Virus record (IMG/VR): IMGVR_UViG_3300049138_000107
Span: 1-40,413 of that record
DNA length: 40,413 nt
Reading direction: 5' to 3' (one strand)
DNA from: a virus
Taxonomy: Duplodnaviria > Caudoviricetes
The notes below the pieces were generated by a model. The model worked only from the letters and a program-made list of their open reading frames with translations, was not told the origin of the DNA and did no database searches. Of the stretch, positions 19,410 through 39,708 are shown one piece after another; position 1 is the stretch's first letter, and each line of letters begins with the position of its first letter. Made by a program: the position numbers and the translations under genes.

Positions 19410-20588
19410 ATGTCGGCAGCACGCAAAAACAGGAAACTCGAAAAGCAGATCGCCGGGATCGTCGACGACGTGATCGTGTCCAGGTTCGGGCACTTCCTCG
19501 ACGATCTGACCTTCAGGATCGGCCAGGCATACGACGTCGCCGGGCGGGCCGCCGGGAGCAGCTCCGGCAAGGTTTACGCCGAGGACCTGAACCTTCTCAA
19601 CCGGCACCAGATGACCGGCTACGCCGTGGCGAACAACACGCCGAGCGCCGGGTCCGTGGCCTGGACTGACGTCAACATCGTCTACGCGGGCCAGAAGTAC
19701 ACGCTGACCAACGGCAACACCTCGAACAAATACCTTTACTGGTCGCCGACCACGACGCCGACGACGATGCTGACCTCGAACACTAAGCCGACCCTGGCGC
19801 CGGGCGAGGTGCTGCTGTTCACGAACAACGCCGGAACGCACACCGTGATGCTTTCGGACACGAACCAATCCCTGCCGCAGCTCGTCTCGAACAACGCCGT
19901 CGACCGCGGAGCGATCCTGGCCAACGCTGTCGGCACCGTCGAAATTGAGAACGGCGCGGTCACGAAAGACATCCTCGGCGCCGGAGCAGTAGTCGCCGGG
20001 AAGGTCGCGGCCGGAGCGATCAACGCCCAGGACCAGATCGCCTCGGGCATGGTTTCCTCCACGGCCCTCGCGGGCGGCGCCGTCGTCGCGGGCAAGATCG
20101 CCAGCGGCGCGATCAACAACTCCAACGTCTTCCAGGCCGGAATCGTCAACACCGCAGCCATCGGAGACAACCAAATCCTGGCCGCCAAGATCGCGTCCGG
20201 GCAGGTCACCGCTGGCAAGCTCGGCACCGGAGCGATCAACAGCTCAACAAACTTCGCCGCCGACGTCGTCGACACCGCCGCGATCAAGCCCGGCAACGTG
20301 ACCTCCGCCTCGCTCGGCACCGGCGCGGTCACGGCCGGGAAGATCGGCACCGGAGCGATCAACGCCTCAACCCTGTTCACGGCCAACGTGGTCGACACCG
20401 CCGCGATCAAGGGCGGCGCCGTCACTTCGACCGAGCTCGGACCGAACGCCGTGATCGCCGGGAAGGTCGCCGCCGGAGCGATCAACAGCGCAGGCATCCT
20501 CGCGGCCGGGGTGGTCGGCACCGCAGCGATCGAGCCCGGAGCAGTGGATGCGCAGCGCCTGAACGTGATGAAGCACTTCATCTTCTAG
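19410..20588 (+). CDS. Tail fibre-like protein with Gly/Ala-rich repeats
   Basis: Repeated GAVVAGKIAAGAIN / VVDTAAIK units. Confidence 0.7.
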   Translation: MSAARKNRKLEKQIAGIVDDVIVSRFGHFLDDLTFRIGQAYDVAGRAAGSSSGKVYAEDLNLLNRHQMTGYAVANNTPSAGSVAWTDVNIVYAGQKYTLTNGNTSNKYLYWSPTTTPTTMLTSNTKPTLAPGEVLLFTNNAGTHTVMLSDTNQSLPQLVSNNAVDRGAILANAVGTVEIENGAVTKDILGAGAVVAGKVAAGAINAQDQIASGMVSSTALAGGAVVAGKIASGAINNSNVFQAGIVNTAAIGDNQILAAKIASGQVTAGKLGTGAINSSTNFAADVVDTAAIKPGNVTSASLGTGAVTAGKIGTGAINASTLFTANVVDTAAIKGGAVTSTELGPNAVIAGKVAAGAINSAGILAAGVVGTAAIEPGAVDAQRLNVMKHFIF

Positions 20589-29800: not shown

Positions 29801-29831
29801 AACGGAGAGTAACGCAATGTGACGGATTTTC

Positions 29832-29884
29832 TGACCGCAATTCTGACCGCAATAGACCCCCTTTGACCGCAATTCTGACCGCAA
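29832..29884 (+). repeat. attP left-arm integrase arm-type sites, 4 x TGACCGCAA
   Basis: Copies at 29832, 29844, 29864 and 29876 (two pairs, 12-bp spacing). Confidence 0.85.
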
Positions 29885-29890
29885 CTGGCG

Positions 29891-29985
29891 AGGCATTCAG
29901 AGGCACCTAGCGGCACCTAAAATACCCCCTACATCCCCGGATTCTAGCGGGTCCCGGGCACCTAGCCGCACCTAGACGCACCTAG
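29891..29985 (+). repeat. 10-bp-phased GCACCTAG repeats, putative Xis binding sites
   Basis: GCACCTA at 29903, 29913, 29958, 29968 and 29978, plus a degenerate copy at 29893. Confidence 0.7.
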
Positions 29986-30005
29986 CGGCAGAACCGCTTT
30001 AACGA

Positions 30006-30049
30006 ACTCATAATCCTTTGGTCCTGGGTTCAAGTCCCAGTCGCCCTAC
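30006..30049 (+). mobile_element. attP: attP common core: 3' half of a tRNA with CAU anticodon (Met/Ile2 type)
   Basis: ACTCATAATCC anticodon loop, T-arm CTGGG-TTCAAGT-CCCAG, 3' acceptor strand TCGCCCT-A; flanked by arm repeats. Confidence 0.88.
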
Positions 30050-30108: not shown

Positions 30109-30160
30109 TGACCGCAATTGTGACCGCAACTGCGAGAATTAGACCGCAACCTGACCGCAA
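30109..30160 (+). repeat. attP right-arm integrase arm-type sites, 4 x (T/A)GACCGCAA
   Basis: Copies at 30109, 30121, 30141 and 30152. Confidence 0.85.
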
Positions 30161-30407: not shown

Positions 30408-30764
30408 ATGCGCGACGACTCCGGCATGTTTTATGACCGCAACGGGCAGCCGATGAGCTTCGAGGAATGGGCCGATAGCAGGGCCCGCGGCGACTTCCAC
30501 ATCGACGACACCTGGATCGGCGACACCCGGATCTCCACGATCTGGCTTGGCCTCGACAGCGGCATCGTTCCGAACGTTCCGCTGACCTTCGAGACAATGA
30601 TCTTCAACGGGCCCGCCGACCTCGACGGGAAGATCATCCGCTACGCGACCGAGCAGCAGGCTGCCCGCGGCCACCAGCTCGCCGTTGCCGAGGTCCGGGC
30701 CGCCCTGGAGACGACGAAGGGCCCTCACCAGGATGGTGAGGGCCCCAGGGCGGATAAGGACTAA
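30408..30764 (+). CDS. Hypothetical phage protein
   Basis: ISTIWLGLD...PLTFETMIF...RYATE...GH; starts 2 nt after the upstream stop. Confidence 0.7.
   Translation: MRDDSGMFYDRNGQPMSFEEWADSRARGDFHIDDTWIGDTRISTIWLGLDSGIVPNVPLTFETMIFNGPADLDGKIIRYATEQQAARGHQLAVAEVRAALETTKGPHQDGEGPRADKD
30719..30745 (-). terminator. Hairpin just downstream of the integrase stop; probable terminator of the leftward transcript
   Basis: GGGCCCTCACCA-GGA-TGGTGAGGGCCC 12-bp stem; weak U tract. Confidence 0.55.
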
Positions 30765-32080
30765 GAGCTGCGGCGCTTGTTGCGGAAGTCCGCCAGCGAG
30801 ACGACGTCGGGCTCCGGCTGCGGCGCCTTGGGAGCAGCCGCATAGAACTCCTGGAGCTTCGCCATCGCGTCGCGCATCGCCTGGTCCGGCGCGTGCTGGT
30901 AGCGCGTGAGCATCGACCGCTGGCTCCAGCCCATCATGCGCATCACGACGCCGTCCGGGACACCCATGACCATCAGAGTTGTCGCCGCCGTATGCCGGGC
31001 ATCGTGCGGCCGCACCGCAGGGACCCCGTTAGCGGCCAGGAACGCCTTCCAGCGCTTGTTAACGAGCGACTGGTCCATCGGCTGGCCGACAGCCTCGCGG
31101 CGCAGGCAGCCGCGGTTCGGGAACACCAGCGAGAACTCCCGGCCGCGCATGTCGGTCCACACCGGCCACTCGGCGCGGGCCGCCCGATGCCGACGGAGCG
31201 CATCGACCAGCATGCCCGGCAGCGGGATCGTCCGCTCCCCGGCGTCCGTTTTCGGCGTGTCGATCGCTGCGCCGCCGCTGTGCCGCTGCGGGCACCAGCC
31301 GCCCTTCTTGCGGCCGCACGACGGAGCGCCGTCATCGTCCTTCGGGCAGCCGTGCTCCCAATCCAGCACGATCAAGCCCTGCCCGATGACGACGGTCCCC
31401 GCGTCGAGGTCGACCAGGTCCCAGGACAAGCCCAGGACCTCGCCCATGCGCAGGCCGAGCGAGAGGAAGGTCAGCCAGAGCGCCTCGTCCTCCGGGTCGA
31501 GCTCGGCTGCGGCGGCGAGCAACACCTTAGCGTTGTCACCGGAGAGCAGCTCAGGCTTGAACGTCCCTGCCTTCGGCGAGTCCATCCGGTCGGCCGGATT
31601 GGAGCCGAGGTGACCGTGCTGAACGGCGACCTTCAGCGCCCGCGACAGGATCGCCGACAGCTGCTTGATCGTGCTGTCCGACAGCCCGCGCTTGCGCATC
31701 GAGACGTAGAGCTTCTGGAGGTGCGCCGGAGTGATTTTTGTGAGCGGCAGATCGCCGAGCGCCGTGCCTTCGACGTACAGCCGGACCTTCGAGCAGTAGC
31801 CGCGATAGGTCAACGGTTTACGGCCGGAGACGTCGTTCTCGAGCCACCAGTGAAGCCAGTCAATGAACTTCATTGACCGACCGACGACCAGGGTCCCGGA
31901 CTCCCGCTCGATAACGGCGGCCTGGATGTTCGCCGAGCACAAAGCCTTGGTGGCGCCGTAGATCGTCTTGCGCCTCGGCAGCCCGGTCTGCGGGTCGGCG
32001 ACCGTGATCTCGGCAGCCCAGCGGCCGTCCTTACGCTGGCGAGGAACGCCGCCCTCGCCGTTGCTTCTCTTAGAGCCCAT
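30761..32080 (-). CDS. int: Tyrosine integrase
   Basis: GLRMGE (R), TPKT (K), HDARH (HxxR), MGW, TRYQH (Y); N-terminal arm-binding domain. Confidence 0.95.
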   Translation of the reverse strand: MGSKRSNGEGGVPRQRKDGRWAAEITVADPQTGLPRRKTIYGATKALCSANIQAAVIERESGTLVVGRSMKFIDWLHWWLENDVSGRKPLTYRGYCSKVRLYVEGTALGDLPLTKITPAHLQKLYVSMRKRGLSDSTIKQLSAILSRALKVAVQHGHLGSNPADRMDSPKAGTFKPELLSGDNAKVLLAAAAELDPEDEALWLTFLSLGLRMGEVLGLSWDLVDLDAGTVVIGQGLIVLDWEHGCPKDDDGAPSCGRKKGGWCPQRHSGGAAIDTPKTDAGERTIPLPGMLVDALRRHRAARAEWPVWTDMRGREFSLVFPNRGCLRREAVGQPMDQSLVNKRWKAFLAANGVPAVRPHDARHTAATTLMVMGVPDGVVMRMMGWSQRSMLTRYQHAPDQAMRDAMAKLQEFYAAAPKAPQPEPDVVSLADFRNKRRSS

Positions 32081-34172: not shown

Positions 34173-35069
34173 ATGTCCATTTTTGCCCCCTCAGTCAACC
34201 GCTACTTTAAGTTCACCAACGTCGGCGACGCCGTCGAAGGCCGCATCGTCGACGTCGGCGAGCCGCGCCAGTCCTACAAGTACGATCCGCGGCCGAACGC
34301 GCCCCGGCAGCTCGACTTCTACGACTCCGGGAAACCGAAGATGGAAGTCGCGATCACGCTCCAGACCGAGCTGCGCGACCCCGAAGACGCCGACGACGAC
34401 GGGCAGCGCAAGATCATCGTGCCCGTCTACTTCAAAGAGCAGTCGCAGCTCACGGCGATCCGCGAAGCCGTGCGGCTGGCCGGAGCGAAGGAACTCGACA
34501 ACGGCGGCTGGCTCGGCGTCGCCTTCGTAGGCTATGACCCGGAATCGCAGAACCCGCAGAACCCGCGCAAGCTCTACCAGGCCCTCTACCGGCCACCGGC
34601 GGGCGGCGGCGGAGTCTTCAGCCAGGGCCAGGACCAGCAGCAGCCCGCGCAGCCGCAGCAACAGCAGCCCGCCCAGGCCACCCCGCAATGGCAGCAGCAG
34701 CCGCAGCAGCCAGCACCGGCCCAGCAGCAGCCCAGGACGGCGCAGGACTACATCCAGGCCGCAGCGAACGGGTCCCATCAGCCGCAGCAGCCCGCCCAGC
34801 AGTGGCAGCAGCCGCAGCCCGCGCAACAGCCGCAGCAGGACCCCTGGCAGCCGCAGCCCGCGCAGCTCAGCACCCAGCAGTGGCAGCAGCCGTCGCAGCC
34901 GCAGCCGCAGACCTGGCAGCAGCCGCAGGCCGCCCCGCAGCAGCAGAGCACCATCGACGGCGACCAGGTCCGGGCCCTCGCCTCCCAGGGTTTCAGCGAC
35001 GACGACATCGCCGCAGCGACCGGCGCCAGCCCCGAAGCGATCCGCACCCTCCGCGGCATCCAGGGCTGA
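34173..35069 (+). CDS. Putative ssDNA-binding protein with Gln/Pro-rich linker and C-terminal HTH-like tail
   Basis: FKFTNVGDAVEGRI...KLYQALY core typical of actinophage SSB-like proteins next to exonucleases; GFSDDDIAAATGASPEAIR. Confidence 0.6.
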   Translation: MSIFAPSVNRYFKFTNVGDAVEGRIVDVGEPRQSYKYDPRPNAPRQLDFYDSGKPKMEVAITLQTELRDPEDADDDGQRKIIVPVYFKEQSQLTAIREAVRLAGAKELDNGGWLGVAFVGYDPESQNPQNPRKLYQALYRPPAGGGGVFSQGQDQQQPAQPQQQQPAQATPQWQQQPQQPAPAQQQPRTAQDYIQAAANGSHQPQQPAQQWQQPQPAQQPQQDPWQPQPAQLSTQQWQQPSQPQPQTWQQPQAAPQQQSTIDGDQVRALASQGFSDDDIAAATGASPEAIRTLRGIQG

Positions 35070-35134
35070 CCCTAGACCGCCGCCGAGTCACGGAAACCCA
35101 AACCCCCCTTATCACCGTGGCTGGCGGCCACCGG

Positions 35135-35174
35135 CGCAGCCCGCGAGATAACCCCCCAACGCTCGCGGGCTGCG
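35135..35174 (+). promoter_or_regulatory. 13-bp-stem hairpin upstream of the Cas7-like gene
   Basis: CGCAGCCCGCGAG ... CTCGCGGGCTGCG; no U tract. Confidence 0.5.
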
Positions 35175-35213
35175 TCACCCCAAAAGAACCGCCACAAAAG
35201 AAGGAAAAACATC

Positions 35214-35843
35214 ATGGAGCACATCCAAATCGACAAGATCGCCGCCGAAACCCTCCGCGTCCCGATCCGCGGCACCTCGCCGCTGCTGATGCATAACTTC
35301 TCCGAAAAAGCGAAGAGGGAAATGCTCGACCGCGCCCAGGGCAAGAAAGCCGTCCGGGAACCGAAGGACCCCCGCGCCGAGTACGAAGCAGCGTTCTACC
35401 GCATCCACGACGAAGACGGCGCCGACCGCTACGGATTCCCGGTAACCGCCTTCAAGGCGGCAACAGTCGGCGCCGCCAGGTTCTACGGCAAGAACGTGAA
35501 GATGACCGAGCTGCGCCAGTTTATGTTCTTCCGCGGGATCCTCACCAAAGGAGACCCCCAGCAACTAGTCGAAATCCACGGCGAGCCGCAGATGCGCGAG
35601 GACGTCGTGCGGCTCGGCGGCATGGCCAAATCCGCCGACCTGCGCTACAGGCCCGAATTCCGGGAATGGACCGCCTCCCTCCAGATCACCTACGTGACGT
35701 CGAGCCTTTCCCGCAGCTCGGTCCTCTCCCTGATCGACGCCGGAGGAATGGGCATCGGCGTCGGCGAATGGCGCCCCGAAAAACGCGGCGAATTCGGCAC
35801 CTACGAAGTGGACCAGACCCGCGAAATCGAGGTGCTGTCATGA
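35214..35843 (+). CDS. Cas7/RAMP-like RNA-binding protein (Vipr-like effector)
   Basis: N-terminal strand plus IRGTSPLLMH, FPVTAFKAA helix, C-terminal Gly-rich loop GGMGIGVGEWRPEKRGEFGTY; linked to the GGYNN array; fold is inferred from motifs only. Confidence 0.7.
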   Translation: MEHIQIDKIAAETLRVPIRGTSPLLMHNFSEKAKREMLDRAQGKKAVREPKDPRAEYEAAFYRIHDEDGADRYGFPVTAFKAATVGAARFYGKNVKMTELRQFMFFRGILTKGDPQQLVEIHGEPQMREDVVRLGGMAKSADLRYRPEFREWTASLQITYVTSSLSRSSVLSLIDAGGMGIGVGEWRPEKRGEFGTYEVDQTREIEVLS

Positions 35844-36253
35844 GCCTGCGCGACCAGCTCACGGCGATCTACCAGGAACATGACCGGCTGACCCCGGACC
35901 TTGTTGTCGAAGCGGCCACACCGCCCGATCATCCGCTGCATGACCGCTTCGAGTGGAACGACAAGCTGGCCGGACATGAGTACAGGAAGGTCCAGGCGGC
36001 GGAGCTGATCCGCAAAGTGAAGGTCGTCTACGCCGACGAAGGAGGACCGAACGAAAAAAGCGTCCGCGCATTCCTGGCTACAAGCCGGGACGACACCGCG
36101 GAACGGACCTACCGCCCGATCGAAGCGGTCATGGCGGATCCATTCAGCCAGAAACTCGTCCTGCAGGAGTGCCTGCGCGAGTGGAAAACCTTTGAACGCA
36201 AATACGGGCACCTAACGGAATTCGCCCGGATCATCGGACGGCCAGCCGCCTAG
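35840..36253 (+). CDS. Partner protein of the Cas7-like gene, function unknown
   Basis: ATGA coupling; LTPDLVVEAA...HPLHDRFEWND motif; its stop codon abuts the array. Confidence 0.75.
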   Translation: MSLRDQLTAIYQEHDRLTPDLVVEAATPPDHPLHDRFEWNDKLAGHEYRKVQAAELIRKVKVVYADEGGPNEKSVRAFLATSRDDTAERTYRPIEAVMADPFSQKLVLQECLREWKTFERKYGHLTEFARIIGRPAA

Positions 36254-36542
36254 GCAGGCATGGCAGGGCTCGGCTCGACCAGGCGCGGCGTGGCAGGGCG
36301 AGGCACGGCAGGTTAGGCAGGGCTCGGCATGGCCTGGCGTGGTCCGGCTTGGCAGGCAGGGCTCGGCACGGTACGGCGTGGCACGGCATGCCTGGGCTGG
36401 GCTAGGCATGGCGCGGCAGGTTAGGCAAGGCCAGGTTGGGCATGGCCCGGCCCGGCGAGGAATGGCACGGCAGGCAGGCAAGGCAGGGCTCGGCGCGGCT
36501 AGGCATGGCTCGGCAAGGCGTGGCATGGCGCGGCAGGCAAGG
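36253..36542 (+). ncRNA. GGY-NN pentamer array, putative guide-RNA locus with five units (10, 8, 12, 10 and 11 pentamers) separated by GGCA
   Basis: Strict 5-nt period with constant GGC/GGT and variable dinucleotides; phase shifts only at GGCA (36253, 36307, 36351, 36415, 36469/36473, 36532). RNA status is inferred. Confidence 0.8.
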
Positions 36543-36578
36543 AAAAAAACGGCACCCAAAAGAACTGGAGGAATTATC

Positions 36579-36815
36579 ATGACCGACCCGATCCCCGCCG
36601 CAGACATCGTCCAGGGACTGCTGCACAACATCCGCGACCGCCAGCAGCAGCGCAGCCGCCTCTACCAGGACATCATCACCGCAGCCGACATCGCCGAACG
36701 CAAAGCCCTCGGCATCCTCATCACCGCCACCCCGGGCGGCACCCTCATGGTCCAGGCCAGCGAGGAAGTCCCGCCCGGCGAAGCCTACGCCCGCCAGGAC
36801 AAGGACAAATCATGA
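36579..36815 (+). CDS. Hypothetical protein
   Basis: RBS GGAGG before ATG 36579. Confidence 0.7.
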   Translation: MTDPIPAADIVQGLLHNIRDRQQQRSRLYQDIITAADIAERKALGILITATPGGTLMVQASEEVPPGEAYARQDKDKS

Positions 36816-37219: not shown

Positions 37220-39708
37220 GCAACCCCATCCTCGACACCGCAAAAGAACTCCACGCCGCCGGGATCTCCGTGGTCCCGGTCCAGGCCGACGGATCCAAAC
37301 GGCCCGCAGGCCGGAGCTGGAAGCAATACACCACCGGCCGCGCAACCGCCCCGGAGCTCGACGCCTGGTTCACGACACCCGGATTCGGGCTCGGCGTCGT
37401 CACCGGCGCCATTAGCGGGAACCTGGAAATGGCCGAAGTCGAAGGCCGCGCCGCTGACCGCATCCCGGAGCTCACGCAGCTCGCCGACGCCAGCGGGCTG
37501 GGCGGGCTGTGGCACCGGCTCAACGCCGGATGGGTCGAGCAGTCACCGACCGGCGGCGTCCATTGGCTCTACCGGCTCGACGGCCAGGTCCCCGGGAACA
37601 CGAAGATCGCCAGGACCGCCAAGCGCCTGGTCCTCGCCGAGACAAGAGGTGAGGGCGGATTCGTCGTCGTCGCCCCGTCGGCCGGGACCGTCCACGAAAC
37701 CGGGCGCCCCTGGATCCGGCTCGCGGGCGGCCCGGCGACGGCGCCGAAGCTCACCGCAGAGGACCGTGAAGCCTTCCACCACCTGCTCGCCACGCTCGGC
37801 GAGGACCCGGCCGAACCGGAACCGGAACCGACCCTGGACATCGGCACGACGTCGGTCTTCGGCGCCAACCCGCCCCGCGACGACGACGGGCGGCTCGAAG
37901 GCATCAGCCCGCTCGACGACTACGAGCAGAAAACCGACTGGGCCGACATCCTCGTCCCGGAGGGCTGGACGAAGGTCTTCGAGCGCGGCCGCACCAGGTA
38001 CTGGCGGCGGCCAGGAAAGAACATCGGGATCTCCGCGACCACCGGCAACGCCCAGGACCGCGACCGGCTGTACGTCTTCACCAGCAGCACCGAATTCGAG
38101 CCGGAGCGCCCGTACACCAAACAAGGCGCCTACGCGCTGCTGCACCACGGCGGCGATCACTCGAAGGCCGCCTCCGCGCTCCGCTCGGACAACTTCGGCG
38201 CCGAGCAGAAGATCCGCATCCAGCGCCCCCAGGAACCACCGCAACAGCCCATGACCATCTGGTCGCCGACCGAGGACACCGGCACCGACGGCGCCCTCGC
38301 CCCGGTCATCCAGATCGCCGACCGGCAGCCGAAGGCCGAAGCGACCGTCGCCCACAGCGACGACGGCAACGCCGTCCTCCTCGTCGCCGAGCGCGGCGAC
38401 ATCCTCCGCTACAACCCGGACCGCGGCCGCTGGCTCGTCTGGAACGGCACGGCCTGGAAATGGCAGCCCCACGGCGGCGGCCAAGCCCGCGAGATCGCCA
38501 AAGACGTCATCCGGGCCATGCCCGTCCACAACAACGAAGACCGCAAGCACCAGCGCAAGTCCCTCAACTCGCTCGGCATCTCGAACATGCTCGGCCAGGC
38601 CCAAACAGATCCGGCGATCACCGTGACCAGCGACCAGCTCGACGCCCACCCCTGGGAGCTCAACACCCCGGGCGGCATCCTCGACCTGCGCACCGGCACC
38701 CTGCGCCCGCCGGACCCGACCAGGCTGCACACCAGGACCACCGCCTGCACCCCGGACTTCGAAGCCGACCGCACCCTCTGGCACGGATTCCTGGCCGACA
38801 CCTTCCCCTGCAACGCCGAGCTGGTCGCCTTCATGAAACGCCTGATCGGATACACCGCCGTCGGCGAAGTCCGCGAGCACATACTCCCGTTCGCCCACGG
38901 CGACGGCGGCAACGGCAAAGGCGTCCTCATGGAATCGATCGCCGCGGTCCTCGGCGACTACGCGACCAGCACCGGCAACGGATTCCTCATGGCGTCCTCC
39001 TTCCAACAGCACTCCACCGACATCGCCGGGCTCGCCGGGATCCGCATGGCCATGTGCTCCGAGGTCAACGAAGGCGACCGCTTCGACGAAGCCAAGGTCA
39101 AGCTGCTCACCGGCGGAGACAGACTCACCGCCAGGTTCATGCGACAAGACAACTTCACCTTCACGCCGACGCACACCCTCTGGCTCGCCGGGAACCACCA
39201 GCCGCACGTCACGGCGGGCGGCGACGGATTCTGGCGCCGCCTCCGGCTCATCCCGTTCCTGCACACCGTGCCGGAGGACAAGATCCTTCCCGGCCTCGCC
39301 GACATCCTCGCCAAACAGCACGGCCCCGCGCTGCTCGCCTGGGTCGCCGAGGGCGCCGCGGAATACGCCGCCACCGGGCTGCGCGAGCCCTCCGAGGTCC
39401 GGGCCGCCACGAAGGAATACGCCGCATCCGTCGACACCGTCGGCCGCTTCCTCGAAGACGCCTGCTACACCGGCGCCGCGGGCCGCAGCATGACCGTCAC
39501 GATCGCGCAATTCCGAACCGCCTACGAGGACTGGTGCCGGGCCAACGGCGAGAATCCGCTCAAGGGCAGGACCCTGGCCAAACAGCTCCAGCACCACGGC
39601 GTGCTCGTCGGCCGCGACGCCCCGAAAGGCCCGAACGGCGTCCGCATGTACGGCGGCATCGGCCTGCGCTACCAAGGCGAGCCCAACTGGTGGGAAAGCG
39701 ACCAATGA
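37216..39708 (+). CDS. Bifunctional primase-polymerase fused to a D5/P4-type SF3 helicase
   Basis: Prim-Pol motifs (VVPV..DGSKRP, SPTGGVHWLY, ETRGEGGFVVVAPS); D5_N region; Walker A GDGGNGKG; KLLTGGD. Confidence 0.9.
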   Translation: MSNPILDTAKELHAAGISVVPVQADGSKRPAGRSWKQYTTGRATAPELDAWFTTPGFGLGVVTGAISGNLEMAEVEGRAADRIPELTQLADASGLGGLWHRLNAGWVEQSPTGGVHWLYRLDGQVPGNTKIARTAKRLVLAETRGEGGFVVVAPSAGTVHETGRPWIRLAGGPATAPKLTAEDREAFHHLLATLGEDPAEPEPEPTLDIGTTSVFGANPPRDDDGRLEGISPLDDYEQKTDWADILVPEGWTKVFERGRTRYWRRPGKNIGISATTGNAQDRDRLYVFTSSTEFEPERPYTKQGAYALLHHGGDHSKAASALRSDNFGAEQKIRIQRPQEPPQQPMTIWSPTEDTGTDGALAPVIQIADRQPKAEATVAHSDDGNAVLLVAERGDILRYNPDRGRWLVWNGTAWKWQPHGGGQAREIAKDVIRAMPVHNNEDRKHQRKSLNSLGISNMLGQAQTDPAITVTSDQLDAHPWELNTPGGILDLRTGTLRPPDPTRLHTRTTACTPDFEADRTLWHGFLADTFPCNAELVAFMKRLIGYTAVGEVREHILPFAHGDGGNGKGVLMESIAAVLGDYATSTGNGFLMASSFQQHSTDIAGLAGIRMAMCSEVNEGDRFDEAKVKLLTGGDRLTARFMRQDNFTFTPTHTLWLAGNHQPHVTAGGDGFWRRLRLIPFLHTVPEDKILPGLADILAKQHGPALLAWVAEGAAEYAATGLREPSEVRAATKEYAASVDTVGRFLEDACYTGAAGRSMTVTIAQFRTAYEDWCRANGENPLKGRTLAKQLQHHGVLVGRDAPKGPNGVRMYGGIGLRYQGEPNWWESDQ

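Follow-up and report, generated by a model that had tools for sequence, protein, structure and literature searches.

A staggered VIPR array in a temperate tailed phage contains a predicted guide against the catalytic-tyrosine box of foreign tyrosine integrases

Does the short repeat array that follows two small genes in a tailed phage genome encode guides and, if so, what would they be aimed at? We addressed this question for a whole virus record of 40,413 bases (66.6% G+C) from a soil phage, which is the window referred to throughout, and for which an initial annotation had claimed that the fifth unit of the array decodes to the active-site motif of an integrase foreign to the phage.

The phage and its VIPR locus

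Scanning of 35 proteins from the window against PHROGs detected terminase, portal, capsid, tail, lysin, integrase and primase genes, together with two repressor-like genes, and because of this gene set we regard the phage as temperate and tailed. The terminase (66-67% identity) and the integrase (43%) have their closest matches in Arthrobacter phages, and we infer an actinobacterial host. Repeat scans of the window detected no CRISPR array and there was no cas operon among the 35 proteins, one of which is an exonuclease with a weak Cas-associated match. Elsewhere in the window a 123-bp tandem repeat (2.7 copies, 20205-20539) lies inside a tail-fibre-like gene, and a Gln/Pro-rich repeat (34629-34947) lies within the C-terminal part of a 298-aa gene (34173-35069, PHROG 1911) upstream of vipr. 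An attP-like region at 30007-30049 corresponds to the 3' half of a tRNA with a CAU anticodon, and on both sides of it are arm-type-like TTGCGGTCA repeats (29829-29884, 29958-29990 and about 30110-30160), with a 10-bp-period repeat adjoining. This attP-like stretch was 80-89% like tRNAs in eight of the ten genomes tried, and when up to three mismatches were allowed it was found in none of 221 genomes of the order.

The locus itself is arranged as follows.

35214..35843, + strand: vipr gene, 209 aa; predicted RAMP (Cas7/Csm3-like) fold with a glycine-rich loop; PHROG 4652
35840..36253, + strand: accessory (vap-like) gene, 137 aa; overlaps the vipr stop codon; PHROG 15946; its own stop codon begins the array
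36253..36540, + strand: staggered GGY/NN (vrRNA) array of five units, starting at the stop codon of the accessory gene
36257..36306, + strand: unit 1, 10 NN; target not found
36311..36350, + strand: unit 2, 8 NN; target not found in the window and target loci, where it was sought
36355..36414, + strand: unit 3, 12 NN; target not found
36419..36468, + strand: unit 4, 10 NN; first 8 NN match a primase-polymerase motif, with no exact match for the full unit
36477..36531, + strand: unit 5, 11 GGC-NN pentamers; putative guide whose predicted target is the catalytic-tyrosine box of a tyrosine-integrase family foreign to the phage

The locus is a VIPR system and belongs to a known RNA-guided family that, as set out in the text of bioRxiv 10.64898/2026.04.26.720920, consists of vipr, vap and GGY/NN vrRNAs read by a one-base-skip rule with the skips on wobble positions. 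Both protein genes are intact reading frames, and a Pfam search of the two proteins gave no match. Of 3,589 candidate homologues of the 209-aa protein, 3,433 were kept at E≤0.001, and the protein was modelled with AlphaFold2 at a pLDDT of 83 using a 66-sequence alignment. Foldseek with this model returned Csm3 and type VII Cas7 chains as the best matches (E 3.6e-06, TM about 0.45-0.5), and on the strength of the model we describe the protein as Vipr-like with a predicted RAMP (Cas7/Csm3-type) fold. The predicted likeness to the backbone RAMPs of Class 1 CRISPR systems (Csm3/Cas7) is thus one of protein fold, whereas the guide code of VIPR, unlike theirs, is non-contiguous. Across the 66 Vipr homologues H27, R146, E185, W186 and R187 are invariant or nearly so and the glycine-rich loop is also kept. 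Matched by motif and without alignment, these residues parallel in order and spacing H17, R138, D177, W178 and R179 of SUSP1, which are given as GGY-binding residues in the text covered of 10.64898/2026.04.26.720927. Homologues of Vipr are present in 34 phage records (27 Mycobacterium, 5 Gordonia and 2 others), and identity is 65-70% with the Gordonia phages Pipp, UmaThurman, ODay and Ecliptus and 47-49% with the 27 Mycobacterium phage records.

The array consists of five tracts of 9-13 pentamers each, with the closing GGCAG included, where around 9-16 tandem GGY/NN repeats are expected of VIPR. Every unit ends in GGCAG and the final G is also the first base of the next unit, which produces GGCAG/G phase shifts at 36253, 36307, 36351, 36415, 36469, 36473 and 36532 and 1-nt overlaps between units. 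Staggered VIPR arrays with overlaps of this kind are described in the legend to fig. S18 of 10.64898/2026.04.26.720920. The units abut, no structured 3' tail was found and the RNA that spans unit 5 and continues up to the next gene folds worse than shuffled sequences (z +1.8); because no structured tail follows unit 5, the array does not have the SUSP1-like type II layout. A promoter-like site was not seen within 35000-36700. The array was present without differences in one contig of a single soil DNA run, which may be the window's own source. For a target integrase that run yielded just two pieces of 151 nt, too little to be of use, and no RNA data set was among the sequencing runs listed for the phage. 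GGCAG-staggered arrays were also observed in five fetched phage records, these being Gordonia phages Pipp, UmaThurman and ODay and Mycobacterium phages Donkeykong and Pippy. The arrays of Pipp, UmaThurman, Donkeykong and Pippy underlie genes annotated as hypothetical proteins. Within our array an AG-TC pair of NN dinucleotides recurs towards the 5' end in units 1, 2, 3 and 5 (36257-36536), while in related loci just 2 of 415 adjacent pairs are AG-TC, and 3' ends are common to units 3 and 5 and likewise to units 1 and 4. These recurrences may be a trace of unit making by recombination.

Unit 5 and the integrase box that it matches

The eleven pentamers of unit 5 are all perfect GGC-NN and run without interruption or a degenerate copy, with the NN series AA AG TC GC TA AT TC AA GT AT GC. 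Reverse-complementing this series with one base skipped between dinucleotides reproduced exactly the decoding pattern of the initial annotation, and the rule which had been deduced there from the letters alone (reverse complement, one-base skip, skip on the wobble position) is the VIPR code described in the text of bioRxiv 10.64898/2026.04.26.720920. We scanned sequence collections with this pattern using the single one-base skip of the VIPR rule and obtained 59 exact 22/22 matches, 1 in the viral, 22 in the genome and 36 in the metagenome collection, representing 50 distinct 93-nt contexts. All 59 lie in one and the same frame on the coding strand, and 55 of them read AMTLDIYADLF, the peptide that had been proposed. 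The skipped bases are wobble positions in the frame of every exact match and vary between matches. All matches in genome contigs fall in records titled Actinomycetota or genera thereof, and their number, 22, compares with 0.002-0.07 expected by chance in the genome collection under three simple models. Outside the masked motif, 50 of the 59 matches have integrase homology at E≤1e-3 to another target integrase, and the remaining nine look like truncated remnants, as judged by their downstream residues. Conservation at the three codon positions was 0.92/0.97/0.61 over 26 sites, a circular measure since the sites were chosen on positions 1 and 2, and it is not counted as evidence.

With up to three mismatches allowed, 25 of 121 Micrococcaceae genomes matched at 29 places, a count that includes the centre genome, which was picked because it matched. 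In the same 121 genomes the reversed pattern, one shuffled pattern and the reversed shuffle each gave no match. The regular-expression search suggested with the initial decoding, when run against these controls, therefore gave strong enrichment of in-frame integrase matches over reversed and shuffled patterns. Integrase-type genes account for 24 of the 29 places and an unrelated conserved ORF, matched at 19/22, for the other 5, while every one of the 18 places at 20/22 or better is within an integrase. A wider sample of the phylum, of low power, gave matches in 5 of 201 genomes (including the chosen centre and one unpublished genome, G053, from which we draw no conclusion) and none with the control; two matches in this sample were in non-integrase genes at 19/22.

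The match covers the 11 NN that lie from one phase shift to the next and stops short of the closing GGCAG, whose AG would call for Leu at a residue that is mostly Ala in the matches shown. Target and unit boundary are thus in agreement. The initial annotation had cautioned that AG-TC and AT-GC dinucleotide pairs recur in other units, and that part of the match could therefore be chance. The recurrence is real, with AG-TC in units 1-3 and AT-GC ending unit 3, but it does not explain the match because this spans all 22 bases. We conclude that the guide-target pair is real and, as far as sequence can establish it, well supported.

The phage carries a tyrosine integrase of its own, and this would be spared.

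30761..32080, - strand: the phage's own tyrosine integrase; equivalent box at 30884-30916

The box reads SMLTRYQHAPD, as had been stated, and agrees with unit 5 at 6 of 22 bases, which is no match, while the best self-match of unit 5 anywhere in the window reaches 14/22. Over long alignments the phage's own enzyme is 21-29% identical to the targeted family.

In the targeted family, with the C-terminal half aligned, the Tyr of the catalytic box aligns with that of XerA (5HXY, TQIY, box II), and we take this residue to be the nucleophile of tyrosine recombinases. The Pfam Phage_integrase domain (PF00589) was found on all seven matched integrase ORFs scanned. By this domain and the XerA alignment the targets qualify as tyrosine recombinases, which are marked by an HxxR box, an LGH box and the catalytic Tyr. 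Open frames of at least 300 aa are present at only 20 of the 59 exact matches, the others being cut contigs or remnants, and the 20 long integrases share 35-100% pairwise identity with a median of 43%. Most Micrococcaceae members of the family depart from unit 5 at one to three of the bases that are read, chiefly through Ile to Val, Thr or Arg replacements and TTG to CTN changes, with the commonest variant one or two read bases off unit 5. Because this commonest variant differs at read bases, the real breadth of the guide depends on mismatch tolerance.

The target site is at the extreme 3' end of the integrase gene, and about 130-220 bases beyond it a tRNA gene, a typical integration site, was found in 8 of the first 23 loci. 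Surroundings were inspected for a few loci, among them a 35.7-kb viral contig with an exact match (L001). In Arthrobacter sp. AL12 (L046:248-7308) around 7 kb at a tRNA-Ser gene hold two integrase-family genes, an HTH gene and a lone capsid gene, with a 22/22 site, and we regard this element as a candidate actinobacterial phage satellite. Micrococcus terreus CGMCC 1.7054, like AL12 an environmental strain, also carries a matched element that is intact. A TraG/VirD4-type gene upstream of the matched integrase in Leifsonia aquatica suggests an ICE-like element, a restriction-modification methylase near that of Cryobacterium suggests an island-like one, and around the matched integrases of the Citricoccus and Microbacterium loci clear element genes were not found. 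The elements that carry matched integrases thus appear to resemble prophages, satellites, ICEs and islands. Short remnants of integrase C termini make up many of the exact matches, and several of these remnants are in Mycobacterium-titled or unnamed soil genomes (L080, L091, L095, L097, L103, L114; L004, L008, L011-L013, L018-L021), and these could be decoy sites or simply decayed elements.

The other units and related arrays

Exact viral scans of units 1, 3 and 4 gave no matches, and unit 4 was matched in none of the 121 Micrococcaceae genomes with up to two mismatches. When units 1-4 were scored against 63 target loci the scores were no better than those of 20 shuffles each, and on this account these units are not shown to aim at the elements targeted by unit 5. 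Because the searches with units 1-4 yielded no full-length target, it is unit 5 by itself that supports a code in this array.

A shorter stretch of unit 4 did return matches. Its first 8 NN (36419-36458), up to a non-canonical GGA pentamer, have 39 exact viral matches, and 26 of these are in frame within the SGGIHW[LF]Y motif of phage primase-polymerases, a gene family to which the phage's own gene belongs. The sub-window was picked post hoc, one shuffled control for the same 8 NN gave 11 viral matches, and the last two NN of the unit do not fit the motif. The phage's own primase-polymerase (37543-37566) reads TGGVHWLY and agrees with unit 4 at 13 of 16 bases. We treat the pairing of unit 4 with the primase-polymerase motif as a post-hoc lead from sequence.

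We also searched for other guides against the same integrase box. The guide-form pattern was found in no viral or metagenome contig in an exact search that was strict on the fixed triplets, and hence insensitive, and the box was not decoded from any of the 64 units that we parsed in 16 related loci.

Proposed action, alternatives and relation to characterised VIPRs

What is observed directly is the array, the neighbouring gene whose predicted structure has a RAMP fold, the exact match in frame and in wobble alignment, and the failure of unit 5 to match the integrase that the phage itself encodes. From our analysis of these we think it likely that unit 5 is a VIPR array guide that would lead a Vipr filament to foreign integrase DNA, blocking transcription and hindering the excision or integration of rival elements. 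By extension from published VIPR work in other phages, the array would be transcribed and then cut at the GGCAG overlaps, one Vipr protomer would be placed on each pentamer, and the NN would pair with the coding strand with every third base skipped. The filament on the integrase DNA would then block transcription, which is repression and not cleavage, and loss of the integrase would hinder excision or integration of the rival element. Since reading is confined to codon positions 1 and 2, most synonymous changes would give no escape, with Leu (TTR/CTN) an exception, and residue swaps such as Ile to Val would also create mismatches.

A more far-reaching version, which we put forward tentatively and which may well prove too broad, is that the array as a whole consists of guides against catalytic motifs, with unit 5 silencing an entire integrase family of prophages, satellites, ICEs and islands across Actinomycetota, unit 4 hitting the primase-polymerase of related phages, and the phage's own copies being spared at the read bases.

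The guide and target could also be real while the complex mainly occupies DNA beside the attachment site of the rival, hindering assembly of the recombination complex. Arm-type sites occur near the 3' end of integrase genes, where the matched site also lies, and the tRNA genes beyond it in 8 of 23 loci would fit such a role, but wobble alignment and the choice of catalytic codons suit selection on coding sequence, and published VIPRs, in the texts covered, repress transcription, which leaves this reading improbable. That unit 5 is an idle relic of a once-functional guide, either because the present host has no matching element or because the array is not processed, would accord with the many remnants among the matching integrases and with the failure to find full targets for the other four units. 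We find this distinctly improbable, as unit 5 has no degenerate pentamer, both protein genes are intact and intact 22/22 targets are found in several named actinobacterial genera. Action on integrase mRNA instead of DNA seems very unlikely; the guide is complementary to the sense strand, the paired strand being the coding strand in 59 of 59 exact matches, and an ssRNA ternary complex is among the figure legends of the structure preprint (10.64898/2026.04.26.720927), but natural targets on both strands, with repression working from either, are reported in the text of 10.64898/2026.04.26.720920. Finally, several residues are possible per dinucleotide, five units could be tried in two orientations and the family-sample controls were only one shuffled and two reversed patterns, yet with a per-site probability of about 4e-14 in frame, and with the excess of genome-contig matches confined to one gene family in the matching phylum and absent from the controls, a chance decoding of a low-complexity GGC-rich repeat to a common motif has a negligible probability.

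The locus shares with the VIPRs described in the texts covered a phage two-gene arrangement, a RAMP-fold protein, GGY/NN repeats, a one-base skip on the wobble, mobile-element targets and a 1-nt staggered array. It differs from the characterised systems of SUSP1 and P. fulva (type II), which in these texts have structured 3' tails and gammaproteobacterial hosts, whereas here there is no stable tail and the setting is actinobacterial. The closest parallel to the preferred reading is vrRNA4 of SUSP1, which according to the text covered of bioRxiv 10.64898/2026.10.15.759431 aims in wobble alignment at active-site codons of the F5 satellite serine recombinase, with VIPR suppressing satellite excision. 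Both guides are wobble-aligned on active-site codons of a rival recombinase, and SUSP1 is reported there to keep its rival integrated. As described, vrRNA4 targets a serine-type enzyme of one satellite family, where its 18-bp footprint precedes the catalytic Ser; in contrast, the footprint of unit 5 is 32 bp long with the catalytic Tyr at its centre, and the tyrosine integrase family in question occurs in several types of element across Actinomycetota.

VIPR arrays have been recovered widely (10.64898/2026.10.21.760802, in the part covered). Neither an actinobacterial nor a tyrosine-integrase VIPR target was found in the text passages covered, though the accompanying figures, supplements and data files S1-S4 could list one, and 'Actino' and 'integrase' are absent from the main text and supplementary PDF text of 10.64898/2026.04.26.720920. 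VIPR, staggered arrays, wobble skipping and aiming at the active site of a rival recombinase are, from these texts, already known; what is new is the tyrosine-integrase target, the phylum and the possible breadth. The finding therefore extends a known system and does not open a new one. With it a natural target has been decoded for a staggered VIPR array without tails in Actinomycetota, and the texts covered report none for this form. It also suggests that the published strategy of aiming at a rival recombinase's active site evolved independently against tyrosine recombinases, an unrelated class. Since many elements share the box, several kinds of rival could be kept in check by a single guide. 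Vipr homologues in isolated phages of Gordonia and Mycobacterium smegmatis offer usable laboratory models for the processing of staggered arrays and for mismatch tolerance.
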